A DNA stretch of 64,000 nt from Myxococcales bacterium (GTDB lineage: Bacteria; Myxococcota; Kuafuiibacteriia; Kuafuiibacteriales; Kuafuiibacteriaceae). Of this stretch, positions 300 to 63,820 are shown piece after piece (position 1 is the first letter of the stretch; every line of letters starts with the position of its first letter). A program made the translations under genes and the position numbers. A model generated the notes under the pieces. The model saw nothing but the letters and a program-made list of their open reading frames with translations, searched no databases and was not told the DNA's origin. The stretch is from contig JAHQVK010000175.1 in the NCBI GenBank assembly GCA_019634385.1, forward strand, positions 333-64,332. The letters run 5' to 3'.

Positions 300-486
300 T
301 AGGGCGTGTCTTCAAACTCCGGCTGCGGAGATGACGCCGTATCCCGTGTTTGTGAGGGTTCGGCCCCGGAGGGAGGGTACTGGATGTACCGGACCGAGTG
401 TCCCGAAAGGGTGGCGAAGCCACCGAGCCCTCACGCATGTCGGAAACAAGTCAGAACGCGGTCCGGAGGTTGAAAACACGCCCTAG
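300..486. repeat. family A MITE-like palindromic element, copy A1 (forward)
   Basis: tagggcgtgtcttcaaactccgg...ccggaggttgaaaacacgccctag. 187 bp. Terminal 13-bp inverted repeats with an imperfect long palindrome. Flanked by TTAG/CTAG. Confidence 0.85.
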
Positions 487-596
487 TAAGACCTGACTGG
501 CAAGAAAGGTATGGCAGGGGGAGGGCTGACTGTCGACGGGGGTGGTTGTTCGATCCGGATAATTCTGTCCTAAGACTGGTGTGAAGTATAGTAAGT

Positions 597-1514
597 ATGG
601 CAAATTGGAAAGTGATGGTTATGTATGGTGCGCTGACCAAGAGCCTGAGACCCAATGAGTCCACCACCGAGCGAGTGCTAGATACGCAACCTGATCCCTC
701 TAGTAGCGAAATCGATGATGCTGAAAGTCAGTCTTCAGAAAATCAGAGACACTCTACTGATAAACATAAATTGCTACAGACGAAGGATTCGCCGCCGATA
801 CTCGGGTGGCCTCCCAAGGCTCCTCTCCCATCGGACCACTATCGTCGAAGTCTAGGGTCAAACTGGGTAGAAGTGAGCCAAGGAGCGCCAAATGGCCAAC
901 ATACCTCTGATGGATCAGAAGGTTCGGGGTTTGAAGATACAACGGCGCCGTCTATGGTGGGGTATCTTGGCCTGAGCCGAAGCAAACCACGTATCGTTGT
1001 TGGCAAGCAAGCAGAGGAGATGCACAGAGAGTCGTTATCTCCCCCGGAGAGGAAGACATTGGATATTGTTCCCTTTGATGTTCTGATTGGGGCAATCGTT
1101 GCTCTCGTAGTAGTGATGATGCAATGTGGCACTACTGCGATTAGCCAGTGGTGGTCCGATCGGCCGGTGCTGATAACATCTGACGGAGACGGGCGAACAG
1201 ATTTTCAGCGGGCAAGATGGCTATTCGGTCAACTAAGCTTGATTTCTGATACCCATAAAACATCAGGCAAAGAATGGGTTTTTTTGGAATTGTTTTCCGA
1301 GCTTTATGACTTGAGGAAGTCTACATTAGATTCTAAGATTGTATCTGTATATGACGAAGCAAAGGAATTACCTAAGTTGTTGGAAGTAAAAAAATTCTTA
1401 AAGAAAAATTTCTGGCCTGTATATGGTGAGGCTTTAGTAGAGATCATATCAGGAGACTTTGCGAGCACATCTACTAACTCAGTTAGTGATGAGTCACGAG
1501 TAGGATTTCAGTAA
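597..1514 (+). CDS. hypothetical acidic protein with one central hydrophobic segment
   Basis: 305-aa ORF in the track. It has no recognisable motif. It starts just downstream of repeat copy A1. Confidence 0.3.
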   Translation: MANWKVMVMYGALTKSLRPNESTTERVLDTQPDPSSSEIDDAESQSSENQRHSTDKHKLLQTKDSPPILGWPPKAPLPSDHYRRSLGSNWVEVSQGAPNGQHTSDGSEGSGFEDTTAPSMVGYLGLSRSKPRIVVGKQAEEMHRESLSPPERKTLDIVPFDVLIGAIVALVVVMMQCGTTAISQWWSDRPVLITSDGDGRTDFQRARWLFGQLSLISDTHKTSGKEWVFLELFSELYDLRKSTLDSKIVSVYDEAKELPKLLEVKKFLKKNFWPVYGEALVEIISGDFASTSTNSVSDESRVGFQ

Positions 1515-1537
1515 AACAGCCGTTTGGAGTCATTTGC

Positions 1538-2044
1538 ATGATTGAAGTGGCAGGTTTAATTCGTTCTCAGGCATGTTTTTGGTGGTCTTTGGTGCTTTTG
1601 GGGTTGGTCGGAAATTATGCATGTGCAAGTTCGTATGCCCCGGCTGTAACAATGAAGAAAAGACGATGTAAAATCTGTGGAAAGATTGTTGATAGTAGAG
1701 GTAGTCCGGTTAGAGATGTAACGGTAGTTCTTTTTAGCGGCTCATCCCCAGACGACGATGAGATTGTATCTGCTACAACTAATAAAGCCGGAGTCTATGA
1801 GTTTTATGATGACTACTCTGGAATGCCTATTTCAAGTGGAAAATATCTTATAAAGGTAGGAGGGGGGAAGCTTGGTGAGCAAAGGATTAGTATCAGTTTT
1901 GATGGGATATATTTGGCTTTGAAAAAACCTATCCGACTATATCGACCTAATGAGAATGTTGGCCGTTCAATGAACGAGCCACCCGAGGAGAGTGTAGATA
2001 AAGAGTCCACAAGGCCTAACACAGTACCTGTGTATGGAGACTAG
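1538..2044 (+). CDS. secreted protein with carboxypeptidase-regulatory-like domain
   Basis: N-terminal hydrophobic signal (WWSLVLLGLVGNYACA). The stretch GKIVDSRGSPVRDVTVVLFS...TTNKAGVYEF resembles the CarboxypepD_reg fold. Confidence 0.4.
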   Translation: MIEVAGLIRSQACFWWSLVLLGLVGNYACASSYAPAVTMKKRRCKICGKIVDSRGSPVRDVTVVLFSGSSPDDDEIVSATTNKAGVYEFYDDYSGMPISSGKYLIKVGGGKLGEQRISISFDGIYLALKKPIRLYRPNENVGRSMNEPPEESVDKESTRPNTVPVYGD

Positions 2045-2224
2045 GGCGTGCCTCTAAGTCCGGCTGGGAGATGACGCTGTATCCCGTGTTTGTGAGGATT
2101 CGGCCCGGAGGGAGGGTACTGATGTACCGGACTGAGTGGCCCAAAAGGAAGGCGAAGCCATCGGCGCCTCACACATGGGGGAAACAAGTCAGAACGCGGT
2201 CCGGAGGCTAAAGGCGCGCCCTAG
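2042..2224. repeat. family A copy A2 (forward)
   Basis: About 90% identical to A1. Bounded by ctag on both sides. Confidence 0.85.
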
Positions 2225-2518
2225 GGTATGTAGTCAGATTCGGACTAAGTCTATGGTTGGTTTTTAGTACCGAGTGCCTGGTGGCACACTATTACCTACC
2301 AAATAGGAGGGGTGCCTAAGGTCACCAGATTGTCGCCGAATGAGAAACGAGCAACGCCCACGTCTGAAGTTAGGATCCGCCAGAACTAGTATCACCAAGA
2401 TTCTAGCTCATGATACAGATGGTAACTACGCAGGACCAACAAGCACTTATTGTGTTCGAGCACTTATTGTGTGCCGCTCAGGTGTGTACTTGAGGTGTGT
2501 TTTAAGGGGTGATTATAA

Positions 2519-4474: not shown

Positions 4475-5781
4475 GCTCCGCTTATGTTCAATGGATGAAG
4501 AGAACACCTTTTATTATGGTCATCTTGTGGCTGGCTTCAAATTGTCAGGAATCGCTTCCAACCTTCTCTTCTGCGGAGGAGGCTTTGGTTCCTGAGTGGG
4601 TTCGGAACACGCTTGATCATCCAGAGAAGGCACAACTGATTTTTGATAACAACCCCGGATGGCGCTATTTTATTGAGGGAGATTACCTTCGGGCGCGACG
4701 CTATTTTCGGACGCGTGAGGAAGCGGCGAGTGAGGCGAGAGTTATGTTCAACCTCAGCCTTTTTTATCGAAATATGGCGGAGATTCAAGCAGACGCTCTG
4801 AAAAAATATTTTGTGGAGCGCGCCCGACTTCAGTTGGCACCTCATCGAGAGTTGGCTGTCCTTCGGCGTAGATTACAATCGTGGAGTCAAGAGAGGCGCT
4901 TTGAAATAGAGGCCAAGCCGCTCAGGATGCTCCATCCCAAAGTTTGGTCTCCTTGTTTGCGAGCTCGTGATTTAGCTAGCCAGGTGGGGTGTGGCTCTCC
5001 CAATGGGTTAGAGAGCAAATTGGAAGAGCTTCAACAGAAAATAGACGAACCGATTGTGCAACTTGAAATCCGGGATGGTGTTACTCAGTCTGTAACCGTC
5101 TTACGCTTTTTCGATCCGTTGGCAGCACTTGGATTGGCGGATGGGTATCTTCGACTCGCACTTCGGCGGATAAAACTAAGGGCTCCAAAGGCGCTTTATA
5201 ATCAAGTTTGCGCAACTCGCCCAAAAATTTGTCGGCCCTCGGAGCCTTTGGTCGATACATTGGAAGTTTCGGATCGGATTCGCCTTTGGGCTTTTTGGGT
5301 AGATCCCCCGAGCAGTACGCCGTCAAGCTTCTCAGATAAGTTCATCGAAGGCAAACAAGAGCAAATGTTTAGTTGGGCTCGGCGAGCCCAGCAGGCGGTC
5401 CGACGACGAGTTACTCGAAATATGGTCTCTGAGGAGCTAAGTGTAGATTGGAGGTTGGGATACCTAGCTAAAGTGTCTATCGAAAGGCGATGGGCGGAAG
5501 TCTTGGCTGAGCAGGGGAAGTGTGAAGAAGCTCTGTACGCGTATCAGATGACTCTTCAGGCGAAGCAAGAACAGAGTCTAAGTAGTATAAATACTCCGGT
5601 CGTTTGGTCCAGAATTGCTGCTTTGGCTCTCTGTGTTCAACATTATCCAACCGCTGTGATGGCACTTCATGCTCTGGAGAAGATGTATCCTATTGCAGCA
5701 TGTTCTCTGGAAATGGTGAAATTATGGAGGGTTTCACAGTTGATTGATATGTCTGATGGTTATCAGGGTCGAGGAAGTTAA
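4471..5781 (+). CDS. hypothetical secreted/lipoprotein
   Basis: 436-aa ORF with a hydrophobic N-terminus (FIMVILWLASNC). Its start is translationally coupled to the upstream gene. Confidence 0.45.
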   Translation: MSSAYVQWMKRTPFIMVILWLASNCQESLPTFSSAEEALVPEWVRNTLDHPEKAQLIFDNNPGWRYFIEGDYLRARRYFRTREEAASEARVMFNLSLFYRNMAEIQADALKKYFVERARLQLAPHRELAVLRRRLQSWSQERRFEIEAKPLRMLHPKVWSPCLRARDLASQVGCGSPNGLESKLEELQQKIDEPIVQLEIRDGVTQSVTVLRFFDPLAALGLADGYLRLALRRIKLRAPKALYNQVCATRPKICRPSEPLVDTLEVSDRIRLWAFWVDPPSSTPSSFSDKFIEGKQEQMFSWARRAQQAVRRRVTRNMVSEELSVDWRLGYLAKVSIERRWAEVLAEQGKCEEALYAYQMTLQAKQEQSLSSINTPVVWSRIAALALCVQHYPTAVMALHALEKMYPIAACSLEMVKLWRVSQLIDMSDGYQGRGS

Positions 5782-5792
5782 CTGGTTGGTAT

Positions 5793-7325
5793 ATGAGATC
5801 GAATGGGCGTTTTTTATATATCGTTGTTGGATGTGTCTTAGTCTGTCGGGTGGGATATTCTCAGGAATTTCGGTATGCTGAGGATGTGGCTCCAAGTGTG
5901 ATTAATCCCATGTTCTCGAAAGAGATGGTGGAGATTCGGCTTAATGAGCTCATGTTTTCTGGGCTATTCAAGGATTCCATTTTTATGGAAGCTGAAGGAG
6001 ATCTAGCAGAGACATGGAAAGTTAGTTTAGATAAGCAAAGAGTTGAAATAACGCTTAGGGAAAAGACATGGCATGACGGTAAACCAGTAACCGCTTATGA
6101 TGTGGCTTTTACGGTTCAAGCATTGAAGAGAGCAAACAGAGGGGCTCGCGAGTTTCGTCGGGTAGCAGCAATCTCTAAGGTTGAGGTTCTGACACCCAAT
6201 AAATTGGTGATAGAGTTCCATCACAACGTGTCTCGTCCATTGAAGTTTTTGTATTTCAAGATTATCCCTAAACATATACTAGTGAAACTCGCTCAAGAGG
6301 GAGAGATTGAATCAATCAAAAATAGTCCAATAGGTTCAGGTCCATTCGCTTTGGATGACTTTGTAGCGAATGAAATTCGGCTGCGACGTGTAGTCAAATC
6401 TGCTGGTGATGACGAGCGTATATTGGAAATCAGAGCCTTGCTGGCGGTACCGAAGAGTACGCAGATAGAGATGTTGAAGTTTGGTTATTTAGAAGCGATC
6501 GTGCGAGTACCACCGGGCAGAATAGCTGAAGTCCGAGCTATTGACTCCTGTCGCCTATATTCATATGAAACTTCGACTTGGTGGTACATAGGTGTAAATC
6601 ATGCTAACCATCATCTGGCTATAAGAAATGTTAGAGAAGCTATAGTACATGCACTAGATAGAGAAAATATTCGGCAGGCTCGACTTGGCGGGGGAAAAAC
6701 TATATCTGGGCCTTTTGCGCCTTGGAGTCCGTTTTACGATAGCAAGGTCACTCCACGGGAGTTTTCTTTGTCGAGCACGGAGCGCTTGATGAAAAAAGCC
6801 GGCTATCACAAGAAAAATGGCGTCTTCAGAGATAGAAACAACAGAATGCTTAAGCTTCGCATGGTTTTGAATATGCAATGGAGCTTGGTTCTTCGCGATG
6901 TAGCCCTAAGCTTAGAGGCTGAGTTGAGGGCAGCGGGGTTCATTATTGAAGTACAATGGCTGGATACTGCGACCTGGTTTCAAGCCGTTGAACGAGATCA
7001 TATCTACGATATAACTCTGGGAATTTGGACTTTCGATGAGGGTTCGAATATTCGGCCCTTGTTTCACTCCAAGGGTGAGAAGAACTTCATTGGCTACCGA
7101 AACCAGCATATGGACAAGCTTTTTGAGCGAGTGCAAGAAGTTCGAGACCCCGATATATTAATTGCCATTAATCGAAAGCTACATCGAATTGCATACGACG
7201 ATTTACCCTATGTTTTCCTTTGGTCTACACCCACCTATTCAGCAATATCGACAAAAATTTATGATGTAGATATTCATCCATTCACTTTTTTTGGTTCGGT
7301 CACTGAGTGGCGATACCAAAAGTGA
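5793..7325 (+). CDS. ABC-transporter-type solute-binding protein, family 5 (peptide/nickel type), orphan
   Basis: 510 aa with an N-terminal signal. Its length and motifs (GPFALDDF, GIWTFDEG, WSTPTY) are typical of SBP_bac_5. No permease or ATPase genes are adjacent. Confidence 0.55.
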   Translation: MRSNGRFLYIVVGCVLVCRVGYSQEFRYAEDVAPSVINPMFSKEMVEIRLNELMFSGLFKDSIFMEAEGDLAETWKVSLDKQRVEITLREKTWHDGKPVTAYDVAFTVQALKRANRGAREFRRVAAISKVEVLTPNKLVIEFHHNVSRPLKFLYFKIIPKHILVKLAQEGEIESIKNSPIGSGPFALDDFVANEIRLRRVVKSAGDDERILEIRALLAVPKSTQIEMLKFGYLEAIVRVPPGRIAEVRAIDSCRLYSYETSTWWYIGVNHANHHLAIRNVREAIVHALDRENIRQARLGGGKTISGPFAPWSPFYDSKVTPREFSLSSTERLMKKAGYHKKNGVFRDRNNRMLKLRMVLNMQWSLVLRDVALSLEAELRAAGFIIEVQWLDTATWFQAVERDHIYDITLGIWTFDEGSNIRPLFHSKGEKNFIGYRNQHMDKLFERVQEVRDPDILIAINRKLHRIAYDDLPYVFLWSTPTYSAISTKIYDVDIHPFTFFGSVTEWRYQK

Positions 7326-7630
7326 TCCAGTGGCTTTCGTATATATTACACTGTGATTTGACCGAATTCTATTAGGTTGAATCGATTCAAGATTATTTTG
7401 AATACTGGGAGCCGTGTTGTTGTCCGTTGCTCAGGTTTTTCCCGCGGCGAGGTCAACCAATTGCCGGCTCGTTGATTCGCCCCAGTAGTGATAGTTTAAG
7501 GCTGGCTTGTGGTGAGACGCTTTGACGAAGAGGCCCTGGGGGGTACGCAGCTGATACCATGCGAAGCCGCTCGGAGTTCTTTACGACACCGGCCGCCCGA
7601 AGCGGACTTGTTGGGCCAATCAACGAGCTA

Positions 7631-7778
7631 CTAGCAGGCCATCGGAAAAGTGAGTTATGCGCTTCGCTCGTCCTTTTTCCGTGGAAGGTCTGGACCGGCT
7701 TCGCCCTCTTCATCCGGAGCGTTCCACGGAAAAGATACTTCGCGGATCACCCATCCCACTTTTCCGATGGCCTGCTAG
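7631..7778. repeat. family C palindromic element, copy C1
   Basis: ctagcaggccatcggaaaagtgagtt...cccacttttccgatggcctgctag. 148 bp with 22-bp terminal inverted repeats. A3 follows after 2 bp. Confidence 0.85.
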
Positions 7779-7780
7779 GC

Positions 7781-8016
7781 TAGGGCGCGTCTTCCAACTC
7801 CGGCTGCGGAGCTGACGCGGTACAGCAAAGACCCCTTATTGATTCTTGCAGAATCAATAAGGGGTCGCGCAGCCGGGCATAGCCCGGCGTAGAATCAGGA
7901 ACTTGGGTTCAACCCAAGTGATTTCTGCTGTATCCCGCGTTTGTGAGGGTTCGTCCCCTCGGTCGGGTACATCCCGTACCTTCCCTCCGGGGCCGAAGTT
8001 GAAAGACACGCCCTAG
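7781..8016. repeat. family A copy A3 (forward, variant core) carrying nested B2
   Basis: The A termini are intact. The interior is interrupted after gacgcggta by a family-B element. It starts immediately after repeat C1. Confidence 0.8.
7823..7930. repeat. family B copy B2 (reverse), nested in A3
   Basis: cagcaaagaccccttattgattcttgcagaatcaataa...cttgggttcaacccaagtgatttctgctg. Flanked by ta/ta inside A. Confidence 0.8.
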
Positions 8017-9646: not shown

Positions 9647-10885
9647 GTGGGATGGATCGAACTGCTGCTGATCCTTGGCGAAACGATGTCCGCCCAAGCA
9701 CTCTCGCAAGCAAGGCTCCATCCACAATTGACGGCGGTACCGTTAGGTGCGGTAGCACCGGGAGACGTTACTTGTCCTCGATGGTCCAAAGACGGAAGGC
9801 ACATTGCCTTTGAACGTGTATTTCATGCTCAGAAACGAGTGGAACTCTATCTGCTCGAGAATGTTCATAGTGGTCACTCCAGTACCGTTCGGTTGAGTGG
9901 TCAACAATCAGCGGGTAGCAAGGAGGGGCGCCGCTCAGAGGATGGCAAGGGGCGGCTACGCTCATTGTTCAAGGGACTGGAGATTGAGCGATGTCATGAT
10001 CTTGCTTGGGCGACAGAGGATGTGGCGTTTGTCTGCAACGATGGGGGAGAGCAACTATACATAAGACGTGGGAAAAGAAGATCGGTTGCAGTCACTGAGA
10101 AGGGTGTGTCTGCTCAACCAACTTGGTCCGCGGATGGGATGACATTGGTGTTTGTGTCTACTCGGGATGGTTTGGGAGCCCTGCATCAGATTTCGTTTGA
10201 AGGGGACCGTCTTGATGGGCCGAGCCCGCTCCTTAAGCGTTCGGAGAATCTAGAGCTCTACCCACAGTGGCACCCGAAAAAACCTTACTTGTTGTACACA
10301 GCCATGACGTCGGGACGGGGCAGTGATGTTCATTTGCTTTCTGAGATAGCTGCGCAAGCTAAAATCCGCCAACTTGTTAGTACCCCATACGATGAATTTC
10401 ATGCTACTTGGTCCCCAAACGGTCAGAAAATCGCGTTTTATAGAGTAAGAAACCGGGGGGAGGGAGGCCCGAGGCAGACATTGCCACGGGCTCTGACTGC
10501 TGACGAATCTGACATCTGGATTAAAGACGTCAGCGCGGACCAGCCTTCATTTCGATTGGCTTCTGCGGTCCATGTGACTACGGGCGGTCCAGCGTGGAGC
10601 CCGGATGGAGACTGGGTCGTATATACATCGGGGGCCAGTGATCAATTGTTTGCCGCGGAGGCAAAAATTGACGGACAAGTTATAGAAATTCCGTTAGCGA
10701 CTATTTCGAACCGGGAGCCGGTGCTAACTAAGTATCAAGAGCGCTGGTTTGTAGCTTATACCACTCTCGGTGAGGCGAAAAACGACAAACGGATGTGGAG
10801 AAGGCTTTATTGGACTCATCTGGACTCTACGATTTTCAGAGTTGCTGGTGATAAAGAAGACAAACGAAATGGGAATGCCTACTAG
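9647..10885 (+). CDS. TolB-like PD40/WD40 beta-propeller protein
   Basis: Repeated WS(P/A)DG...VF/VY motifs (WSADGMTLVFVSTRDG, WSPNGQKIAFYR, WSPDGDWVVYTS) typical of PD40 repeats. N-terminal signal. Confidence 0.6.
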   Translation: MGWIELLLILGETMSAQALSQARLHPQLTAVPLGAVAPGDVTCPRWSKDGRHIAFERVFHAQKRVELYLLENVHSGHSSTVRLSGQQSAGSKEGRRSEDGKGRLRSLFKGLEIERCHDLAWATEDVAFVCNDGGEQLYIRRGKRRSVAVTEKGVSAQPTWSADGMTLVFVSTRDGLGALHQISFEGDRLDGPSPLLKRSENLELYPQWHPKKPYLLYTAMTSGRGSDVHLLSEIAAQAKIRQLVSTPYDEFHATWSPNGQKIAFYRVRNRGEGGPRQTLPRALTADESDIWIKDVSADQPSFRLASAVHVTTGGPAWSPDGDWVVYTSGASDQLFAAEAKIDGQVIEIPLATISNREPVLTKYQERWFVAYTTLGEAKNDKRMWRRLYWTHLDSTIFRVAGDKEDKRNGNAY

Positions 10886-10886: not shown

Positions 10887-11072
10887 TAGGGCGTGTCTTT
10901 AACCTCTGGATGTGGAGCTGACGCGGTATCTCGCGCGTGTGAAGGGTCGGTCCCGGAGGGAGGGTACCGGATGTACCGGACCGAGGGGCCCGAAAGGGGG
11001 GCGAAGCCACCGGCCCCTCACAAACGATGGAAACAAGTCAGCACGCGGTCCGGAGGGTAAAGACACGCCCTA
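10887..11072. repeat. family A copy A4 (forward)
   Basis: ctagctagggcgtgtctttaacc...ggagggtaaagacacgccctaa. Confidence 0.85.
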
Positions 11073-11330: not shown

Positions 11331-11552
11331 ACATTGGCTACATAACAATTAGGTATTGCGAGGTGGCATTTTAATGTCGGAGGTGGTCTATTACTTGTCC
11401 TCGAGGTACCTTAATATCCAGCAACCTGAGCTTTCCCTTTCTCATCATTTGTCTCTTCGGAGGCTAACTGTGGCTAGTCTCCTACGAGTTCAGACATTCG
11501 GTGGATCCGATATTCGCTATAGTTATTTGCCAACTTTGAGTACACATTGCAT

Positions 11553-11665
11553 ACAGCAGAAATCACTTGGGTTGAACCCAAGTTTCTGCTTCTACTCGGG
11601 CCTATACCCCGCCGCGCGCGCCTTGTTGATTCTTACAACATCAATTCAAGTGGGCTTTGCTGTAG
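11553..11665. repeat. family B copy B3 (forward)
   Basis: acagcagaaatcacttgggttgaacccaagtttctgcttctactcgggcctataccccgccgcgcgcgccttgttgattcttacaacatcaattcaagtgggctttgctgtag. Confidence 0.8.
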
Positions 11666-11781
11666 TTGGTATATATAGCTGCACTTAGTAAGAAATATGG
11701 CGCAGGGGAAATCAAAATATTTCGACCCTGCTACTTCATTATGTTTGAATATGAGTGATACAATACCCTCAGCAGTATGAC

Positions 11782-15671: not shown

Positions 15672-15858
15672 TAGGGCGTGTTTTTACCCTCCGGATCGCG
15701 TTCTGACTTGTATCCTGCGTTGGTGAGTGGTCGGTGGCTTCGCCACCTTTTCGGGCCCCTTGGCCAGGTAGATCCAGTCCCCTCCCTCCGTGGCCGCCCC
15801 CTCACAAACGTGGGCTACGGCGTCATCTCCGCAGCTGGAGGGTAAAGACACGCCCTAG
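15672..15858. repeat. family A copy A5 (reverse orientation)
   Basis: Reverse complement of the A consensus. Its right terminus shares CTAG with the start of repeat C2. Confidence 0.8.
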
Positions 15859-16033
15859 CAGGCCATCGGAAAAGTGAGTTAGGCGCTTCGCGGGTCCTTT
15901 TTCCGTGGAACGTCCGGACCGGCTTCGCCTTTCATCGGTTGCATACGCCCGGTATGCGCCTTCTTCATCCGGAGCGTTCCACGGAAAAGATACTTCGCGG
16001 ATCACCCATCTCACTTCTCCGATGGCCTGCAAG
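15855..16033. repeat. family C copy C2 (with ~30-bp internal insertion)
   Basis: Same termini (the right end reads cctgcaag). It carries an extra tttcatcggttgcatacgcccggtatgcgcc block. It shares CTAG with A5. Confidence 0.8.
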
Positions 16034-16097
16034 TGAGCACTTTGTTGGTGGAGGTAGGTCTGAGTCGAAGTAAGAGGTGAAAGAAGCAGTATGATTC

Positions 16098-17453
16098 TTG
16101 GTGAAGCCTGCAATAGACTCCGTGAGTAGGCTGGATATGGAAGACTTAGCACTGCAGCGACTGCCGCGACCCAAGCAAAGCGAGCTGATGATTAAGAAGC
16201 TCGGCCCCTGCGAATATCCGTCCCCACTCGAAGTGCGAGGGAGACGGTTTATTGCTGATGATTGCCGAGTAGAGTTGAGCAAGCATATTGTCGGGGGGGT
16301 CCTCAACGAGGAGTTATCGTTTGAGGCGGCTGGTCCCCGGGCCAACGTATTCTTCAACCCAGAGAACACAACCGCGGCATTCGTGACCTGTGGAGGTTTA
16401 TCACCAGGACTAAACAATGTGATTCGATCCGGATACCTTGAGCTATTCTTTAACTATGGAGTGCAGCGTATCTTGGGAATTCATAATGGGTACAGGGGGT
16501 TGAATCCTAAATCTGGTTTGGAACCTACGGTGATGACCCATCGATTTGTACAGGATATCCATTACATGGGTGGTACGGTTTTGGGGAGCTCTCGAGGCGC
16601 GCATGACCCAGTTCTTCTCGTGGATGCCATGGAAGCCCATCAGATTGATATTCTCTTTTGTATTGGGGGGGATGGAACTCAGCGAGGTGCGCATCGGGTC
16701 CAGCAAGAGATTGCCCGGCGAGCTCTGAAGAAATCTGTTGTAGGTATTCCTAAGACTATCGATAATGATGTGCCCTATGTGGAATTGAGCTTCGGCCATG
16801 TGACGGCGCTTGAAGTAGCGGCGGATGTCTTGCGTGGTGCACATGTCGAAGCAAAAGGGGCGCCCAATGGCGTCGGTTTGGTTAAGGTTATGGGCCGGGG
16901 CGCCGGATTTATTGCGGCGGGCGCTGCGCTTGCGAGCCAGGAGGCTAATTTTGTCCTGGTCCCTGAAGTACCCTTCCCTCTAGAGGGAGAAGGAGGCTTC
17001 CTTGATTGTCTAGAACAGCGTCTACTGGCCCGCGATCATGCTCTGGTGGTAGTCGCTGAGGGAGCGGGTCAGCATCTTTTTAACGATACAAGCTCAGAAG
17101 TGGATCAGTCAGGTAATCAGCGGTTTCGAGACATTGGCGTCTTCCTCAGGGATCGAATCAAAGAGCACTTCAAGAGAAAGCGCATTGAACTCAATCTCAA
17201 ATATATTGATCCAAGCTACGCTATTCGCAGCGTACCGGCGAATGCGTGGGATCGCATACTAAGCGATCGAATGGCGAGAGCTGCTGTTCATGCGGCTATG
17301 GCAGGGAAGACGGATACAATGATTGGCTACTGGAGTAATGAGATCGTTCACGTACCTATCTCAGCGGCGGTAGCACAAAAGAAGCAGATGTTTCTGGGTG
17401 GGGATCTTTGGAATGCGGTAATGGCTACCACTGGTCAGCCAGAGTGGTATTAA
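16098..17453 (+). CDS. pfk: 6-phosphofructokinase (long type; ATP versus PPi dependence not decidable)
   Basis: GGLSPGLNNVIRS, GGDGTQRGA and IPKTIDNDV are canonical PFK motifs. Confidence 0.85.
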   Translation: MVKPAIDSVSRLDMEDLALQRLPRPKQSELMIKKLGPCEYPSPLEVRGRRFIADDCRVELSKHIVGGVLNEELSFEAAGPRANVFFNPENTTAAFVTCGGLSPGLNNVIRSGYLELFFNYGVQRILGIHNGYRGLNPKSGLEPTVMTHRFVQDIHYMGGTVLGSSRGAHDPVLLVDAMEAHQIDILFCIGGDGTQRGAHRVQQEIARRALKKSVVGIPKTIDNDVPYVELSFGHVTALEVAADVLRGAHVEAKGAPNGVGLVKVMGRGAGFIAAGAALASQEANFVLVPEVPFPLEGEGGFLDCLEQRLLARDHALVVVAEGAGQHLFNDTSSEVDQSGNQRFRDIGVFLRDRIKEHFKRKRIELNLKYIDPSYAIRSVPANAWDRILSDRMARAAVHAAMAGKTDTMIGYWSNEIVHVPISAAVAQKKQMFLGGDLWNAVMATTGQPEWY

Positions 17454-18862: not shown

Positions 18863-19159
18863 TAGGGCGTGTCTTTAAACTCCAGCTGCGGAGATGACGC
18901 TGTACAGCAGAAATCACTTGGGTTGAACCCAGGTTCCTGCTTCTACGCGGGGCTATGCCCCGCTGCGCGACCACTTGTTGATTCTTATAGAATCAACAAG
19001 TGGTGTTTGCTGTATCCCGTGTTTGCGAGGGTTCGGCCCCGAAGGGAGGGTACGGTAAGTACCGGACCGAGGGGCCCAAAAGGGGGGTGAAGCCACCGAC
19101 GCCTCACAAATGAGGGAAACAAGTCAGACCGCGGTCCGGAGTCTAAAGACACGCCCTAG
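18863..19159. repeat. family A copy A6 (forward) carrying nested B4
   Basis: A termini intact. B4 is inserted at the same internal ...gta|tcccgtg site as in A3 but in the opposite orientation. Confidence 0.85.
18905..19012. repeat. family B copy B4 (forward), nested in A6
   Basis: cagcagaaatcacttgggttgaacccaggttcctgcttctacgcggggctatgccccgctgcgcgaccacttgttgattcttatagaatcaacaagtggtgtttgctg. Flanked by ta/ta. Confidence 0.8.
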
Positions 19160-20007
19160 CTAGGTGGAATCATGGACGAGTACCAACCGTAAGAGACGTC
19201 CTAATGAGGGACAATACGGACTCAAGTCTGCAGAGCGAAGATGGAGCCTTTATATCTCCGCCCCGAATACAAAACACCACGAGGTGATCCGCCATTGGGG
19301 GTAAAGTGCTGGCGAAGATAATGTTTCGCGGTGCGCGACTGGTTTGGGGTCTTGTTTTTGGCTCTGCACCAAGCGGACCGACCTCGGCCTCTTGTTGAGG
19401 GGTGCTTACGTCGATTGAGGGATGCGTAAGTTGTTCCATTCTCGCTAGCCCATTGGGGCAAAACTATCCCTGAATGCAGAGCGCCACGGGACTAGAGTGA
19501 TATGTACAGTTTGCTGTACAATAGTTCTACGTAGCCCTAGCATTGATAGTCTCTATGTGACTGGAGTAGTTGGTATGGAGCGGTCACAAAGTTGATGGTT
19601 TTCAATACGCGGTTGCCGAAAGTTGGTCTCAGCGGGGTTTGTGGTCGCGGGGTGTTCTGGCGGTTGAATTGTCGGTTGCTACGACACTTAGGCGGAGTTG
19701 GGCACAAGTACACTATGCTCCGTCCCCGAATGGCGAGGACGAGTCACTAGGTAGGTTATTGACTGATACTGCGTGTGAGTCGGATTCATAGCTTTCTTGT
19801 GTATTGAGACAACGAATGCTTGAGTGTCTACGCTGTCTGTTGGTGAGGGTTGGGTGTTGGAAGGTTATAAAGTGCCTTAATCCGTTGTTGACCAGTTCGT
19901 AGGAGACCCACTTGACAGCTGGCTTGATGTATCGGTTCAAAGTTTCCCAGCATCAATGTGGGGAGGTGCACAGCTGATGTCGGCAGAGCTGGCAAAATTG
20001 ACTGGCT

Positions 20008-46044: not shown

Positions 46045-46220
46045 TATGGCGTGTCTTCAAATTCCGGCCCGCGTTCCTACTTATTTCCCACATGGGTGAG
46101 GGGTCGTTGGCTTCGCCCCCTTTCGGGCCCCTCGGTTAGGTACATCCCGTACCCTTCCTCCGGGGCCGGCCCTTCACAAACACGGGATACGTCGTCATCT
46201 CCGCAGTCGAAGTTTGAAGA
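46045..46220. repeat. family A copy A9 (reverse, right terminus truncated, abutting B8)
   Basis: Reverse-complement A core (ggcttcgccccctttcgggcccctcgg...). It ends at gtttgaaga without a terminal inverted repeat and is joined directly to a 5'-truncated B8. Confidence 0.7.
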
Positions 46221-46221
46221 T

Positions 46222-46309
46222 GAATTGATTCTGTAAGAATCAACAAGTGGTCGCGCAGCGGGGTATAGTCCGGCGTAGAGGCTGGGTTCAACCCCAGTGA
46301 TTTCTGCTG
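46222..46309. repeat. family B copy B8 (reverse, 5' truncated) abutting A9
   Basis: gaattgattctgtaagaatcaacaagtggtcgcgcagcggggtatagtccggcgtagaggctgggttcaaccccagtgatttctgctg. Confidence 0.7.
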
Positions 46310-46321
46310 AATTGTTGACGT

Positions 46322-48592
46322 TCAGATAGTTGGAGGCTGCCATCGACGAAGCAAGAGCGCATTGCTGACGACACTGATGCTCGAGAGGGCCATCATGGTG
46401 CCTGCGAGTATCGGTGTGAGCAGGCCAGCGGCTGCCAACGGGAGGCCGAGTAGGTTGTAGGTAAATACCCAAAAGATGTTATGGTGGAGTTTGACATGCA
46501 TTTGTTGGGCAATATCTATGGCGGCCAAAACCAGCTGGGGGTCTGCTTTCATGAGGGTAATATCCGCCGCTTGCTTGGCTAGATCAGTTCCGGTGCCCAT
46601 GGCTATACTCAGATTGGCTACAGAGAGGGCAGGGGCATCGTTGATACCGTCTCCGACCATGACTACTCTGTGCCCATCAGCTTGGAGGCGTTGAATGCAC
46701 TCTGCCTTAGCCTCCGGTAAGATCTCACTTTCTACATCAGTGATACGGAGCTCTTTGGCGAGGGTTTCGGCGGTATGTCGGTTGTCTCCCGTGAGCAGAA
46801 TTACTTTGAGATTTGCCCGGTGAAGGGCTTCAATGGCGGAGGGCGTGCTAGGGCGGAGGGGGTCTTCTACTGCAATACCTCCACAGAGCTTGTGGTCTAT
46901 TTCTATCAGCATGACCGTTCCAACGCGTTGGTGACTGGTTATTAGGTTTTTATGGGCAACGAGATTGTGACCACGTTCGGCCATCCACTGGGGACTACCT
47001 ATAGCTACTTCCATGTGAGCAAGACTATTGGTGGCTGAGCCCCTGAGGGTTGCTATTACTCCACGACCAGGAACAGCAACGAGTTCGGAGGGGGCTGAGC
47101 CTAAAGATGTTTGAGATGGATGGCTTTGCCAGGCTTGGACTACCGCCCGAGCCAGCGGGTGTTCGGAACCGGCTTGGGTTTGCGCTGCTAGTTCAAGCAA
47201 ACGCTCTTCGGAGAAGATAGATTCAGGAAAAGACCAAGTATTTCGAACTTTTGGCACTCCGAGGGTCAGGGTGCCGGTCTTGTCCAAAACCACTGCTGAT
47301 AATCGGAGCGCCTTTTCCATTGCCGCCGGACGACGAATGAGAATTCCGGCTCGAGCGGCGGTGCCCAGCCCAACCGCAATGACTGTGGGTGTAGCGAGAC
47401 CCAAAGCACAGGGGCAGGCAACAACCAGAACGGCCACCGCGCGTAACACTGCCTCTGTTGGGGGGAGGCCAAGTGCCCACCATCCTCCGCCGGTACAGAT
47501 AGCAAGCAGTACAACAGTGGGAACAAACACGGCCGACACCCGATCGATGGTGCGCTCTACCGAGGCTTTTTCTGCCTGAGCTCGTTCGACGACGGCGACA
47601 ATTTGCGCAAGTCTACTGGTGTGACCAACATGGGTGGTCCGTACCCGCAGCATACCTGAATGATTAAGAGCTCCGGTGAGTACCTGGTCGCCTTCGTGTT
47701 TGCCAACGGGCATGGATTCTCCGGTCAACAGAGATTCGTCCACAGTGGAGGTCCCAGAAATGATTGTGCCGTCTACGGGGATATGTTCACCGGGCCGAAC
47801 CACCACCGTGGTGTTGGTGCCTACGGCTTCAATGGGTACTTCAACCGTACCGTCAGGCGTTTCTAGACTGGCCCTGGTCGGATAAAGTTTGCTTAGGCCA
47901 TCAAGGGCTTCCGTAGTTTGCTGTTTTGCTCTTCGCTCGATGAACTTGCCGCTGAGAATCAGGGTGAGAATCAACGCGGAACTTTCAAAGTAGAGCGGAC
48001 CGTCGGTGATGAGACCGTATATGGACAGCCCAAGTGCGGCGGTAGTACCAAGAGCCACCAACACATCCATATTGGCGCCTCGGTGCCGGACAGCTTGCCA
48101 TGCTCCAGCGTAGATTCGAGCACCAATGGTACCCTGAATGACCATAGCTAGTAGACACTGAGTCCAACCGGGTAGTTCCCACCGTACGCCGAGGGGATGT
48201 AGGAGCATGGGCAGTACAAGAGGAGTGCTGAATAGGACGGCGATCATCAGCAATTTCCGGTCCCGCTGCGCCTGTGCAGCCTGAGCTTGCTGACGAGCAT
48301 TTCGGCCTTCTACAACGGAATCAACCGGATTCGCGGTGAAGCCGATATGCTCTACCGCATCTACCAAGGTATCGGAGGAGGCTGTACCTACGACCGAGGC
48401 GGTTTCGTTGGCAAAATTGACTCGGACGGATATCACTCCTGGGGTTTGTTGCAGGGTTCGTTCTATGCGCCGCGCGCATCCTGCGCAGCTTAGTCCACCC
48501 AGGGTCAGCCGTACCGGCTCCAGAACAGTAGTAGGGGGGAAAAGGCGATCATGTGCGGGGGGGGGCGCACTGGTGTTCATAGATTGAGTCAT
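46322..48592 (-). CDS. copA: copper-translocating P1B-type ATPase
   Basis: N-terminal HMA GLSCAGCARRIERTL. CPC motif ACPCALGLATP. Phosphorylation site DKTGTLT. Hinge GDGINDAPAL. Confidence 0.85.
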   Translation of the reverse strand: MTQSMNTSAPPPAHDRLFPPTTVLEPVRLTLGGLSCAGCARRIERTLQQTPGVISVRVNFANETASVVGTASSDTLVDAVEHIGFTANPVDSVVEGRNARQQAQAAQAQRDRKLLMIAVLFSTPLVLPMLLHPLGVRWELPGWTQCLLAMVIQGTIGARIYAGAWQAVRHRGANMDVLVALGTTAALGLSIYGLITDGPLYFESSALILTLILSGKFIERRAKQQTTEALDGLSKLYPTRASLETPDGTVEVPIEAVGTNTTVVVRPGEHIPVDGTIISGTSTVDESLLTGESMPVGKHEGDQVLTGALNHSGMLRVRTTHVGHTSRLAQIVAVVERAQAEKASVERTIDRVSAVFVPTVVLLAICTGGGWWALGLPPTEAVLRAVAVLVVACPCALGLATPTVIAVGLGTAARAGILIRRPAAMEKALRLSAVVLDKTGTLTLGVPKVRNTWSFPESIFSEERLLELAAQTQAGSEHPLARAVVQAWQSHPSQTSLGSAPSELVAVPGRGVIATLRGSATNSLAHMEVAIGSPQWMAERGHNLVAHKNLITSHQRVGTVMLIEIDHKLCGGIAVEDPLRPSTPSAIEALHRANLKVILLTGDNRHTAETLAKELRITDVESEILPEAKAECIQRLQADGHRVVMVGDGINDAPALSVANLSIAMGTGTDLAKQAADITLMKADPQLVLAAIDIAQQMHVKLHHNIFWVFTYNLLGLPLAAAGLLTPILAGTMMALSSISVVSNALLLRRWQPPTI

Positions 48593-49212: not shown

Positions 49213-50334
49213 ATGTCGACAACTGCGCTTGTAGCATGGCTGCCGGGGGATGGAATTGGTCCGGAGGTTGCCCAAGCGGCCAGAGAAGTTTTGGATGTTG
49301 TGCTCCAACGATGTTCGCTGGTGGCAAACCATGATGTTATTCCCTGTGGAGGAAAGTACTATCTTCGGCACGGACAAGACTGGCCGTCTGATGGTGCCGA
49401 ACGATGTGCTCGCGCGGATGTCATGTTTTTGGGGGCGGTAGGGTACCCATCGCCCACTGGGTCTGGTCCGGTGACGAGAGGGGATGGTCGGATGGCTGGC
49501 TACTCAGCGGTCCTCGGAAATCGCCAGAAGTTTGATCTATTTGCGAACATCCGCCCCGTTCGCCTGTGGCCTGGACTCAGTCGCCGAATAACGGGGCGTT
49601 TACGGTCGGTGTGGTCACCCGAAGACGTTAATCTAGAGATCATTCGAGAGAACACTGAAGGCTTGTATATTGAAGCCGGGGCAACCTTGCGCTCTGGTGG
49701 CTCTCCGGTTGGGCAGGTGGCAGTGGACACAAGAGTTGTCACCCGAGCCGCCTCAATGCGAATATGTGAGGTTGCTTTCCAGCGAGCATCTCGTAGCGTG
49801 ACTGCGGTGGTCAAACATAACCTTCTTGAAGGCTGTCGATTATTTGTAGATACCTTTAAAGAAGTCTCTTTAAGGTATCCTCACATTGAGGCTAACGTGA
49901 CTTTGGTGGACGCTTTTGCACCGGACCTCATACAGAGTCCAGAGAAGTATGATGTAGTGGTGACGACTAATCTATTTGGTGATATCTTGACTGACCTGGC
50001 GGCGGTACTACAAGGAGGGATGGGAATGGCAATAGGTGGCAATATAGGTCTATCTCATGCCATGTTTGAGCCAATACATGGCTCGGCACCGGATATTGCG
50101 GGACAGGGTAAAGCAAACCCGCTTGCGATGATACTTTCGGTGGCAGAAGGGCTTCGTTGGTTATCTCTCCAAAAAGGGAGTCCTTGGAGGGAGGCTGCGG
50201 AGAGGATCGAGCGAGCAGTAGGGCATATTATTAGCCAAGGACCACTCACTGCCGACTTGGTGGGGAGTGCTGGAGGGGCTTCAACCGCTGAGGTTACTGA
50301 GGCCCTAGTGGACGTGATTCGGCGAGTTGAATAG
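49213..50334 (+). CDS. isopropylmalate/tartrate dehydrogenase-family oxidative decarboxylase (LeuB-like)
   Basis: The N-terminal LPGDGIGPEV and the NLFGDILTDLAAVLQGGMGMAIGGNIG signature of the IDH/IMDH family. Confidence 0.8.
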   Translation: MSTTALVAWLPGDGIGPEVAQAAREVLDVVLQRCSLVANHDVIPCGGKYYLRHGQDWPSDGAERCARADVMFLGAVGYPSPTGSGPVTRGDGRMAGYSAVLGNRQKFDLFANIRPVRLWPGLSRRITGRLRSVWSPEDVNLEIIRENTEGLYIEAGATLRSGGSPVGQVAVDTRVVTRAASMRICEVAFQRASRSVTAVVKHNLLEGCRLFVDTFKEVSLRYPHIEANVTLVDAFAPDLIQSPEKYDVVVTTNLFGDILTDLAAVLQGGMGMAIGGNIGLSHAMFEPIHGSAPDIAGQGKANPLAMILSVAEGLRWLSLQKGSPWREAAERIERAVGHIISQGPLTADLVGSAGGASTAEVTEALVDVIRRVE

Positions 50335-58453: not shown

Positions 58454-58578
58454 GCTAGGGGCGCGTTGCTGAGTTCGGTCAGGAACTATCGCTAAGCGCC
58501 TGGATCCCTCCGGGGCCAACCCCTCACAAGGCGGGCTACGTGTCAGCTCCGCAGCCGGAGGCTAAAGACACGCCCTGC
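58454..58578. repeat. family A copy A10 (reverse, internally deleted)
   Basis: ctaggggcgcg...ccctccggggccaacccctcacaaggcggg...gcagccggaggctaaagacacgccc. It keeps both ends and lacks part of the core. Confidence 0.55.
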
Positions 58579-58602
58579 CTTACGGAGACGCTCCGAGTGC
58601 AG

Positions 58603-61765: not shown

Positions 61766-61856
61766 TACAGCAAAGACCCCTTGGTCCAGACACGGACCCC
61801 TCACAAATGTGGGAAACGAGTCAGAACGCGGTCCGGTGTTTGAAGACACATCCTAA
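61766..61856. repeat. composite fragment: B-like terminus joined to right half of A (A11)
   Basis: ctacagcaaagacccc (B end) followed by ccctcacaaatgtgggaaacgagtcagaacgcggtccggtgtttgaagacacatcctaa (A right arm). Confidence 0.5.
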
Positions 61857-61954
61857 ACTCGACGTCTCAAAACGTGATAGTTGGGCGAGCTATCTTTACT
61901 GCGGTTTGGTTCCACTTTGCGGAGGTTACATTGAAGAAGCTATACACAAAGTCC

Positions 61955-62872
61955 TTATTGGCTTACGGAAAAGCAAACGGCGTTAGAGACTAGTTCCGTG
62001 CCATCTCTTTCGCCGCGTAAGAAGATGGCGTTAATTGCATCTTCATCTTCCAGGCAGAGCGTGAAAATGAGGTCTATGATATTATCATTATCATCACTAT
62101 CCGGCTCGCTCAGACTGGGATGAGAGGGGGAGTCTACGCCAGCTGAGTATACAAGCCTCTCACCGCCATTGGGGCCGAGGCCTTTGAGCCGCTGACTATA
62201 GAGGGAGCTCTGAATATCTACATTTTCGTCAGGTAGGGCAATTTGCGCGGCAAATTCACGAACAAAACGACAGTCATCGGTGGTCTCAAGGTCTCGTCCA
62301 TAGGCTACGGAGAGAATGATAGGCCCATCACTGTCACGCTGGTGATTGCTAGCGTTGTCGCAGCTACCGTTGATTTGCTGTGGGTCTACACATTGATTGT
62401 AGTCGTCGCCGGCATTGACGTCGGTTTGGCATAGCTGCTGCTGAGCGAGACAACCGGTTTCCCCTAAATTCACGCAAGTCAGAGGATCACCCTCCTGGCA
62501 TCCATCAGCGGTGCACGTTTCACCGTCGGGACACGTGCCTTGTTCTCCGATGGTACCACAGAGAGGGGCGCCTTCTTCACCGCAGAGACCGTTGGCGAGG
62601 CATACTTCGCCGTCAGGACAAGAGGTTTCGTTGCAAACACACACGCCTAAAGGAGCGTTATTGGTGGGCTCAGTATTGCACTCCGGAATGGTTCCCGCGC
62701 AGCTGTTGTCGAGTTCACAGCTTGTGACGCAACCAGGGTCGATGGTGCGGTCATCACAAACCTCTTCATCGCTACAGGCGTCATTACAAGCATCTCCAAG
62801 AGAAAAGTCTTCGTCGTCACCGCAGGCGCCGATCGTGGTAAACAAGGCTAGGGCAAGAAGATAGCGTTTCAT
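61955..62872 (-). CDS. cysteine-rich repeat lipoprotein (secreted, acidic)
   Basis: Lipoprotein signal LFTTIGAC. More than 30 Cys in repeated CxDGExC / CPDGETC modules resembling myxococcal-type Cys-rich repeats. Asp/Glu-rich. Confidence 0.5.
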   Translation of the reverse strand: MKRYLLALALFTTIGACGDDEDFSLGDACNDACSDEEVCDDRTIDPGCVTSCELDNSCAGTIPECNTEPTNNAPLGVCVCNETSCPDGEVCLANGLCGEEGAPLCGTIGEQGTCPDGETCTADGCQEGDPLTCVNLGETGCLAQQQLCQTDVNAGDDYNQCVDPQQINGSCDNASNHQRDSDGPIILSVAYGRDLETTDDCRFVREFAAQIALPDENVDIQSSLYSQRLKGLGPNGGERLVYSAGVDSPSHPSLSEPDSDDNDNIIDLIFTLCLEDEDAINAIFLRGERDGTELVSNAVCFSVSQ

Positions 62873-63281
62873 AAGTTCCTATGGTGTTGGCTACGGTTTA
62901 CGGATGCTTCTTTCAAGAAGTGCTCGCGATCAATCACTGTCGAATGATTGAGGACAAAGGTCAGATGCATACCAACGCCGTATGGGATTGCTACAGCTTT
63001 AATAGTCGCCCACAAGCCAAAAGTGCATTGGGTTTCGATCTTGTCGACGAGGATGGGTGCGGTTGCGAGCCTTGGAGCCAATGGGATCGGTGCCTAGTTA
63101 CCGTGTGTTCCACTAATCTTGGTACATCCCCTTTCTCCCCAGTACGAGTTCAAGAGGAGGGGAAAAGCTGCACTCTGCAGGGAAAACTTCTCTTTGGATG
63201 TCGGAATACTGCCAAGATTTTGTTCCTGAGCATGACGAAGCTTGACCGAACCGGCCAGCTCACGGCTTTTGTACGAGCTAG

Positions 63282-63620
63282 GTGACGACGACCCCAAACC
63301 CATGGCTGATCCTCGGCTGTGCCATCATCCTCGAGGTGGCGGGAACTACGTTTTTAAAGCTGTCTGATGGCTTCCGAAACGTGGGGGCTTCCGCGATTAT
63401 GGCTGTTTTTTATGCAGCCTCATTCTTTTGTGTGTCTATCGTGATTCGGCAACTCAGTATGGGGATGGCCTACGCGATATGGGCGGGAGTAGGCACGGTG
63501 CTTATCGCTTTGGTTGGGCACACTATCCTTGGAGACCGCCTCACACCCACCCAAGGCATTTTCATTCTTATGGTAGCTATAGGCGTGGCTGGCTTGAAGC
63601 TTTCTGCCCCCTCGTCGTGA
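63282..63620 (+). CDS. SMR-family small multidrug efflux protein (EmrE/SugE-like)
   Basis: 112 aa with four TM segments. The conserved Glu is in TM1 (ILEVAGTTFLK), with AYAIWAGVG and GIFILMVAIGVAGLKL. Confidence 0.75.
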   Translation: MTTTPNPWLILGCAIILEVAGTTFLKLSDGFRNVGASAIMAVFYAASFFCVSIVIRQLSMGMAYAIWAGVGTVLIALVGHTILGDRLTPTQGIFILMVAIGVAGLKLSAPSS

Positions 63621-63725
63621 CTGGTTATTTGGTCAGTGATGAGTGCCCGGTCTGGTGTTTCTCTTAGGCATGGAATGCTTGTGGGTTAAATGCCCACACA
63701 GCTGCGAACTGCATGGCTGCCGCCA

Positions 63726-63820
63726 TAAGGGCGCGTCTTTGCCCTCTGGCCGTGGAGATGGGGCCGTATCCGGCATGTGCGAAGTGTCGGCCCCGGAGGG
63801 AGGGCAAAGACACGCCATAA
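63726..63820. repeat. family A copy A12, internally deleted 95-bp derivative
   Basis: taagggcgcgtctttgccctctggccgtggagatggggccgtatcc...cggccccggagggagggcaaagacacgccataa. Both arms are kept and the central hairpins are lost. Confidence 0.6.

Follow-up and report, generated by a model that had tools for sequence, protein, structure and literature searches.

Nezha, a MITE (miniature inverted-repeat transposable element) of Anabaena and Nostoc, is a hairpin of 130-170 bp whose terminal inverted repeats (TIRs) equal those of ISNpu3, an insertion sequence (IS) of another species, and mobilisation in trans has been proposed for it (Zhou et al. 2008, as summarised in PMC3184786). A similar pairing was observed for family A, a palindromic repeat of 186 bp that is present at 13 loci in a stretch of 64,000 nucleotides from a Myxococcales bacterium (GenBank assembly GCA_019634385.1, contig JAHQVK010000175.1, positions 333 to 64,332 of the forward strand); this whole stretch is referred to below as the window. 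By its ends family A is paired with IS5-family elements, as Nezha is described to be paired with ISNpu3. Cyanobacterial plasmids hold both a MITE and an IS with family A-type ends, and the hosts of Nezha belong to a different phylum from the host of family A. The analysis indicated that family A is very probably a non-autonomous MITE family that was mobilised in trans by an IS5-family (IS427-type) transposase and has since decayed.

The IS5-family elements in question are short ISs with two open reading frames (ORFs) that belong to the transpos_IS5_3 group, and they share with family A the end pattern TA followed by GGG(C/T)GTGT.T.CAAA, the 2-bp TA duplication and the YTAR target. They are 864-899 bp in length and carry ORFA and ORFB, whereas family A is 186 bp in length, has no ORF and has an unrelated interior. 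RUP and other MITEs derived from IS630 resemble family A in their TA duplication, small size and intergenic location, but the ends of family A are of the IS5 type and not of the IS630 type.

The Correia elements of Neisseria (CREE/NEMIS) are like family A in size and habit, being abundant, mostly intergenic, TIR-bounded elements of ~100-200 bp that are co-transcribed as long hairpins (PMC10969869), but the TIR sequences are unrelated. Promoters, an IHF site and RNase III cleavage are associated with Correia elements, whereas the family A copies within the first 20 kb of the window (1-20 kb) show no promoter-like sites. Correia elements also have a TA duplication. To our knowledge their transposase has not been established, whereas a candidate transposase family can be named for family A.

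Mobile insertion cassettes (MICs) of Bacillus cereus are bounded by IS ends, lack a transposase and carry passenger genes (cited in PMC3281130). The likeness to MICs concerns only a cassette on two metagenomic contigs that is described below; family A itself has no ORF. MICs were described with IS231 (IS4-family) ends. REP/BIME sequences are imperfect palindromes of 20-40 bp with a GTAG/CGTC-type head and a Y1 transposase, RAYT (see PMC3733652). Family A, at 186 bp and with TIRs and TA flanks, has no GTAG/CGTC head and is not a member of this class, and no RAYT-like ORF was present among the ORFs of the window that were scanned.

Structure, copies and insertion sites of family A

Copies of family A were located by the alignment of eight full copies, from which a hidden Markov model (HMM) was built and searched against the whole window with nhmmer, with the filters off. 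Thirteen loci were recovered, with zero extra; these were the same 13 copies or fragments that had been listed in the earlier note. They consisted of eight full or near-full copies, two copies with a nested family-B element and three remnants, which together amounted to 2,012 bp (3.1% of the window) at a density of ~1 copy per 5 kb. The terminus TAGGGCGTGTCTT, allowing at most one mismatch, occurred 17 times in the window compared to 0.04 occurrences expected from shuffled sequences. A repeat finder placed the family A sites in overlapping repeat families. Ten copies were in the plus and three in the minus orientation, and orientation relative to the adjacent genes was mixed.

The consensus is 186 bp in length, including the TA at each end. 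A TIR of 19-23 bp, GGGCGTGTCTT(C/T)AAAC(TCCGG), was present at both ends of every intact copy. The arms pair imperfectly inward past the TIRs and there are two small hairpins at the tip. When folded as RNA the consensus gave -132 kcal/mol compared to -71 ± 4 in shuffles (z = -14) and formed a near-perfect long hairpin. Copy size ranged from 179 to 187 bp, and no ORF of 100 aa or more arises inside a copy. No Rfam match was obtained at gathering thresholds anywhere in the window. One of the tip hairpins, GGTGGCGAAGCCACC at consensus positions 110-126 (for example, 409-425 in the window), is conserved and contains GCGAAGC, a sequence that forms an unusually stable DNA mini-hairpin.

Family A therefore has the size, the lack of coding capacity, the TIRs, the flanking duplication and the many copies with unrelated flanks (13 loci in 64 kb) by which MITEs are recognised. 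The MITE-like nature proposed in the earlier note was thus borne out, and the same is true of the shared termini and the long imperfect palindrome, the occurrence of both orientations, the absence of interrupted ORFs and the decay products, since the internally deleted forms, the half element and the truncated junction at 46220 were all seen. No transposase was found in the window, either by Pfam analysis of ~40 ORFs or by tblastn with IS5-type transposases, and the latter gave no credible match at any family A locus. Four ORFs of 100-170 aa (30835-31353, 46077-46472, 15823-16152 and 11356-11688) read through MITE clusters; these are probably spurious and could be mis-called by automatic annotation.

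The copy closest to the consensus (93.5% identity) was located at 300-485 on the plus strand (186 bp including both flanking TAs; nhmmer E = 5e-60, HMM positions 1-186; target tTAGt). Further full-length copies on the plus strand were located at 2042-2223 (182 bp; E = 1e-50; target cTAGg), at 10887-11072 (186 bp; E = 1.1e-56; target cTAAc), which starts 1 nt past the stop codon of the ORF at 9647-10885, at 27721-27907 (187 bp; E = 1e-52; target cTAGc) and at 30962-31146 (185 bp; E = 8.1e-54), which lies between convergent genes and, with 84% identity to the consensus, is one of the two most diverged copies. The plus-strand copy at 36892-37070 (179 bp; E = 8.7e-51) has small internal deletions and lies 90 bp upstream of a bshC-like ORF (37160-38740; Pfam match). 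On the minus strand a full-length copy was present at 15672-15857 (186 bp; E = 2.3e-55; repeat families D11 and D13), the right TA of which (15856-15857) is common to an adjoining family-C element (15855-16033). Another minus-strand copy, at 46045-46220 (E = 2.2e-44, HMM positions 10-186; repeat families D9 and D10), is 9 nt short where it meets a truncated family-B element (46224-46318).

The two copies with a nested element were both on the plus strand. The copy at 18863-19158 (HMM positions 1-42 and 28-186) contains a family-B MITE at 18905-19014 and has a full length of 186 bp after its removal. The copy at 7781-8015, which was recognised from partial nhmmer matches on both strands, from repeat families D5, D9 and D12 and by direct reading, is rearranged: the left arm of family A (positions 1-42) is followed by the family-B element at 7823-7932, an inverted and partly deleted family A centre and the right TIR. 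Between 7926 and 8015 the centre is inverted relative to its own left arm and has two internal deletions, which suggests recombination within or between palindromic copies. The remnants were located at 58454-58577 on the minus strand (E = 2.4e-12), where only 58505-58577 aligns (family A positions 2-75), the rest is unrelated or degenerate and the terminal TA has mutated to TG; at 61788-61855 on the plus strand (E = 2.8e-13), which is the right third of the element (positions 119-186) and is preceded by a family-B end fragment (~61766-61785); and at 63726-63819 on the plus strand (E = 9.5e-13, HMM positions 2-81), an internally deleted copy that has lost ~90 bp and in which positions 1-81 run straight into the final ~15 nt of the right TIR.

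All copies were intergenic, none of the 13 being within a supported ORF, and the excision in silico of each intact copy restored no long ORF across the junction. The flanks differed at all 13 loci and similarity stopped exactly at the TA junctions. All 13 copies lie in one 64-kb window, a distribution that would also arise if, instead of transposing, they had been multiplied within this region alone by segmental duplication or recombination. However, because each copy has different, unrelated flanks and its own TA junctions, and both orientations are represented, such an origin can be set aside as extremely improbable. It is also at odds with the finding that, in several phyla, ISs with a transposase and other MITEs are delimited by these ends and, as weak evidence, with the Logan assembly of the same sample, which breaks in the family A/B cluster at ~46260 as it would for a repeat that is present elsewhere.

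TA flanked 18 of the 18 ends of the nine intact copies. When the element and one TA were removed, the pre-insertion sites read tTAGt, cTAGg, cTAGc, cTAAc, tTAGc, tTAGc, cTAGc, cTAGt and cTAAa. The reconstructed targets conformed to YTAR at nine of nine sites, with CTAG found five times and TTAG and CTAA twice each; by our own estimate the probability of YTAR at all nine sites by chance is ~0.25^9, or ~4e-6. A 4-bp (YTAR) duplication, with the element ends taken as GGCGTG..., was ruled out, since the outer bases differed between the two sides at five of the nine sites. Because this model, which has a C before and a G after every copy, fails at these five sites, it is the central TA that is duplicated. 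The same TA at full-length ISs that have inserted at several different sites, described below, supports this duplication.

Since the element starts with G, each of its ends reads TAG inward, and it can therefore occupy the TA of a TAG stop codon and leave the protein unaltered. Two copies have done so. At 2042-2223 the left TA and the first G form the TAG stop codon of the plus-strand ORF 1538-2044, and excision leaves a stop-free run of 183 codons that ends at the junction. At 27721-27907 the CTA at the right end is the TAG stop codon, on the minus strand, of ORF 27905-29851, and excision leaves a stop-free run of 499 codons that ends at the junction. The pre-insertion sequence at 2042-2044 and at 27905-27907 was already TAG, and the encoded proteins were unchanged by the insertions. 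The YTAR/CTAG target, together with the initial G, provides a mechanistic reason for copies that are flush with gene ends. Scarcity of CTAG in genes was considered as a cause of the intergenic bias and was ruled out, as CTAG was observed 174 times compared to 191 expected; selection against genic insertions is the simpler explanation of this bias.

IS5-family elements with family A-type ends

The left-end TIR and some adjoining sequence (33 nt) were compared by blastn to the plasmid collection, which yielded cyanobacterial and actinomycete replicons. Plasmid pNFSY07 of Nostoc flagelliforme (L007, 2503-3405) carries an 899-bp element with the structure TA, GGGCGTGTTTTCAAACT...AGTTTGAAAACACGCCC, TA, at a CTAG target. 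Compared to TAGGGCGTGTCTTCAAACT, the end of family A, its end has 18 of 19 positions in common. The element has two overlapping ORFs that match the NCBIfam model transpos_IS5_3 (E = 8e-40 and 2e-27) and the Pfam domains DUF4096 and DDE_Tnp_1. This arrangement, with ORFA (DUF4096) and ORFB (DDE_Tnp_1) in different frames within 864-899 bp, is that of the ISs with family A-type ends. A tblastn search with the Nostoc ORFA returned 1,937 plasmid records, and the annotated matches among those listed were IS5 family transposases, including ISLpl3, ISSfl7 and ISAba31. At least 6,595 homologues of ORFA were found at E < 1e-20 in a large protein database, many of them on contigs of ~1 kb, as is to be expected because repeats break assemblies.

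Metagenomic DNA was then fetched for six further transposase homologues (P0221, P0182, P0225, P0203, P0227 and P0244). All six elements were bounded by TA and GG(G/A)NNTGT.T.CAAA, although only the left end was recovered for P0182; those with both ends present were 864-875 bp in length, and ORFA was followed by a DDE ORFB in another frame wherever the element was intact. The P0225 element was present at several different sites that shared only the TA, with Y before the TA and, where the right flank was within the contig, G after it. The end pattern GG(G/A)NNTGT.T.CAAA was therefore observed at seven independent elements that carry a transposase and for which DNA was fetched. The ends of an IS on a Rhodococcus plasmid, annotated as IS5 family, are TAGGCCGTGTTTCGAAAG; this IS is more distant and its ends are a related variant of the pattern. 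A Streptomyces IS in L010 with the left end TAGGGCCTGTCC had no clear matching right end and was not used as evidence. A search for a full-length IS with the same TIRs had been proposed as a check, and it succeeded in part: such elements exist in other organisms as TA-flanked IS5-family ISs of 864-899 bp with GGG(C/T)GTGT.T.CAAA ends, but there are none in the window.

Elements of the IS5/IS427 group in Paracoccus are 832-865 bp in length, have two frameshifted ORFs and have a 2-bp direct repeat in all but one case (PMC3281130, Table 2). The ISs with family A-type ends were assigned to this group because their size, their two frameshifted ORFs and their 2-bp direct repeat match these tabulated IS427 properties, and the 2-bp duplication typical of the group fits all copies of family A. 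Judged by its ends, family A is likely to be in the mobilisation range of an IS5/IS427-type transposase, where the IS427 label is derived from these properties and not from an ISfinder look-up.

The TA flanks and the preference for CTAG had at first suggested a different parentage, namely a MITE of the IS630/Tc1-mariner type that is moved by an IS630-family transposase, like RUP of Streptococcus pneumoniae. TA is also the insertion site of the IS630 family, classically as part of CTAG, and it is likewise duplicated. This parentage was dropped when the elements that end in family A-type ends proved to belong to the IS5 family: the full-length elements that were recovered all encode an IS5-family transposase, and none encodes a DDE_3/HTH protein of the IS630 type. 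Furthermore, a duplication of 2 bp is the commonest value for the IS5/IS427 group too (PMC3281130). An IS630-type origin of family A is therefore regarded as very unlikely.

Several observations nevertheless weigh against mobilisation of family A by an IS5-family transposase. The TA duplication is also a hallmark of IS630/Tc1-mariner elements and, at 2 bp, is weak evidence for any single copy. The IS427-group assignment rests on properties and NCBI product names and not on ISfinder. Neither the window nor any contig with a firm assignment to Myxococcota yielded a full-length IS with family A ends, and in two large protein searches, which returned thousands of ORFA homologues, there were no taxon labels that pointed to Myxococcota. 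None of the recovered IS ends was identical to the family A end beyond ~19 nt, and no sampled IS end had the inner ...CTCCGG extension; the right end of P0225 reaches ...CAAACTCC. No empty orthologous site was available for comparison, the nearest relative being 64% identical in LeuB, and past mobility is therefore inferred and not observed. The family A interior did not appear to be an internal deletion of an IS, since blastn of the consensus against all of the fetched ISs matched only the TIRs. Descent from an unsampled IS is compatible with a match that is confined to the TIRs, and for many MITEs the likeness to the mobilising element is limited to the ends.

Under mobilisation by an IS5-family transposase, the original unit would have been a near-perfect palindrome of ~182 bp with TIRs of 19-23 bp. 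These TIRs would have served as the binding and cleavage sites of a DDE transposase encoded by a short IS5-family element with two frameshifted ORFs (transpos_IS5_3), presumably provided in trans from another place in the genome, where a full-length IS would reside. The transposase may have bound both ends, cut out or copied the element and joined it to the target by means of a 2-nt staggered cut at TA, so that insertion would have occurred into the central TA of YTAR, most often CTAG, with duplication of the TA. Genic insertions were presumably lost by selection, which would have left only intergenic copies. These would then have decayed by point mutations, internal deletions, an inversion and the insertion of a second MITE family. 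Copies beside stop codons would be co-transcribed as long hairpins, with effects that are probably incidental.

Decay of family A and its surroundings

The earlier note had suggested a recent or ongoing burst, a proposal that was not upheld. Pairwise identity among full copies was only 73-87% (mean 80%), and their identity to the consensus was 82-93.5%, in a star-like pattern. The TIRs, at 79% and 82% identity compared to 79% for the interior, were no better kept than the rest of the element. The copies folded at -66 to -106 kcal/mol compared to -132 kcal/mol for the consensus, each copy being 26-66 kcal/mol worse, and rearranged, deleted and half copies were present. Because identity is low, the TIRs have decayed like the interior and the copies fold worse than the consensus, family A represents an old expansion that was followed by independent neutral decay; it is neither a recent or ongoing burst nor a structure that is kept by selection.

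The stability of the hairpin, in the consensus (z = -14) and to a lesser degree in the copies, and the location of several copies directly after stop codons, where they are probably co-transcribed, might instead indicate that family A is kept by the host as RNA or DNA hairpins. These could act as 3' mRNA stabilisers, RNase III sites, attenuators or protein-binding sites, as has been proposed for REP, ERIC and Correia sequences, and the transposon features would then be secondary. For Correia and ERIC elements there are documented effects of RNase III and of RNase E (PMC10969869). However, there was no sign of structural selection in family A: the RNAalifold covariation term was +2.49, which is a penalty, a double change was found in only 6 of 58 pairs and many pairs were broken. 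The loss of folding energy in every copy, the equal rates of decay of interior and TIRs and the mixed orientation relative to neighbouring genes also argue against a host function, which is considered unlikely. A structured-RNA reading was rejected on the basis of the covariation penalty and the lack of an Rfam match. A cargo of promoters or terminators was dropped as well, since in the copies within 1-20 kb no match to a sigma-70-like promoter was seen and the terminator-like matches were just two, both weak; good terminator-like hairpins were found in family B.

Family B is a MITE of ~110 bp with the structure TA, CAGCAG...CTGCTG, TA. In addition to the elements nested at 7823-7932 and 18905-19014, the truncated element at 46224-46318 and the fragment at ~61766-61785, it was present at 2-62, 11552-11663, 20007-20120, 31214-31308 and 36725-36837. 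It was inserted in family A twice, at the same TA (family A positions 41/42), in opposite orientations and with duplication of the TA; the family A copies without family B at 41/42 represent empty sites for it. Family B tends to lie in or beside family A copies, and it holds the best terminator-like hairpin with a T-run in the first 20 kb. Family C is a repeat of ~150-180 bp that starts with TA and GCAGGCCATCGGAAAAGTGAG..., with two copies (7631-7778 and 15855-16033) whose aligned segments show 93-95% identity. It lies immediately next to family A copies, and the single TA at 15856-15857 that flanks both elements is to be expected if one element inserted into the TA that flanked the other.

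The window is an ordinary segment of a bacterial chromosome, with genes that include those for a DAHP synthase, a phosphofructokinase, LeuB, a SerA-like protein, CopA, BshC, MotA/B-like proteins and a hybrid histidine kinase. The LeuB-like protein (49213-50334) was also present in a Logan assembly of sample SRR12681089; its next relative was 64% identical, and the named homologues were mostly from Myxococcota. GC skew was unusually strong, being positive in every 2-kb bin (0.06-0.23); the cumulative skew climbs with no reversal, which places all of the window on a single replichore arm. Logan contig SRR12681089_21409 starts at ~46260, inside the family A/B cluster at 46045-46318, and runs through the degenerate remnants at 58.5, 61.8 and 63.7 kb, a pattern that fits intact copies being repeated elsewhere in the genome.

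The same ends around unrelated interiors

Exact-pattern scans for the ends were carried out on a genome collection (at least two loci) and on metagenomes (three loci), in addition to the plasmid blastn search. In other contigs, family A-type ends, up to the identical 23-mer TAGGGCGTGTCTTCAAACTCCGG, were shown to enclose unrelated interiors. Such elements of ~180 bp were present on two contigs (L001 and L002) of a bin labelled Opitutaceae, one of ~160 bp on an Allocoleopsis plasmid (L008) and one of ~165 bp on an Embleya replicon (L009), where it was one of six matches to the query in the record. A palindrome of ~45 bp at 115-160 of L004 consists of two TIRs end to end (TAGGGCGTGTCTTCAAACTCCGGCGACGGAGGAGTTTGAAGACC...) and could represent this class of element in a minimal form or after a deletion.

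A larger, TA-flanked cassette of 1,003 bp with family A-type ends was found at 6420-7422 of L005 and, reversed, at ~13654-14628 of L006. In L005 it contains an ORF (6620-7348) for a Cys-rich protein of 242 aa with a signal-peptide-like start, and neither a transposase nor a Pfam match was detected in the cassette. The contig is GC-rich (65-67% GC) and the genes on either side of the cassette are convergent; its left TA and first G form the TAG stop codon (6418-6420) of the upstream ORF 5710-6420. The cassette looks like a passenger element of the mobile-insertion-cassette type.

The occurrence of one TIR around unrelated interiors is to be expected if a single clade of transposases moves any DNA that bears its ends. 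When the family A consensus was compared by blastn to all of the fetched loci, only the ends matched, and the family A interior was not seen outside the window; this is a weak negative result, as the patterns scanned were those of the ends and the two loci from the genome collection are a lower bound. None of the three metagenomic loci with these ends had a transposase, and two scans of viral contigs for the ends returned nothing. A literature search for the TIR string retrieved only unrelated aptamer and primer sequences, and one for myxobacterial MITEs retrieved nothing relevant.

Taken together, these loci raise the tentative and rather doubtful possibility that a single clade of small IS5-family transposases, which recognises ends of TA followed by GGGCGTGT(C/T)TTCAAAC, is a generator of non-autonomous elements across phyla, and that unrelated DNA has been captured by it time and again in Myxococcota, in Cyanobacteria, in Actinomycetota and in a bin with the label Verrucomicrobiota. 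If this were so, its products would comprise 45-bp minis with the ends joined end to end, hairpin MITEs of 155-186 bp and a 1-kb cassette with a passenger gene. The inner ...CTCCGG extension that is common to the non-autonomous elements and is complete in no sampled IS end hints at a specialised, unsampled mobiliser or at descent from MITE to MITE across phyla. If the density of about one copy per 5 kb holds genome-wide, few bacteria would be reported to have MITEs as densely packed as this.

Family A is ordinary, long-decayed selfish DNA and not a new kind of system. For annotation, its significance is that families A, B and C account for ~3% or more of the contig, for assembly breaks and for several spurious ORF calls. 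For transposon biology, it illustrates that a TA duplication need not mean IS630, since the ends point to an IS5/IS427-type transposase, and the presence of the same TIR on MITEs with unrelated interiors in several phyla makes this TIR a useful search key for the class. Current understanding of MITEs is left unchanged by family A, and the points of modest interest are three: a TA signature that misleadingly resembles that of IS630, one TIR that is reused on unrelated interiors in different phyla, including on a cassette with a passenger gene, and the silent insertions into stop codons.

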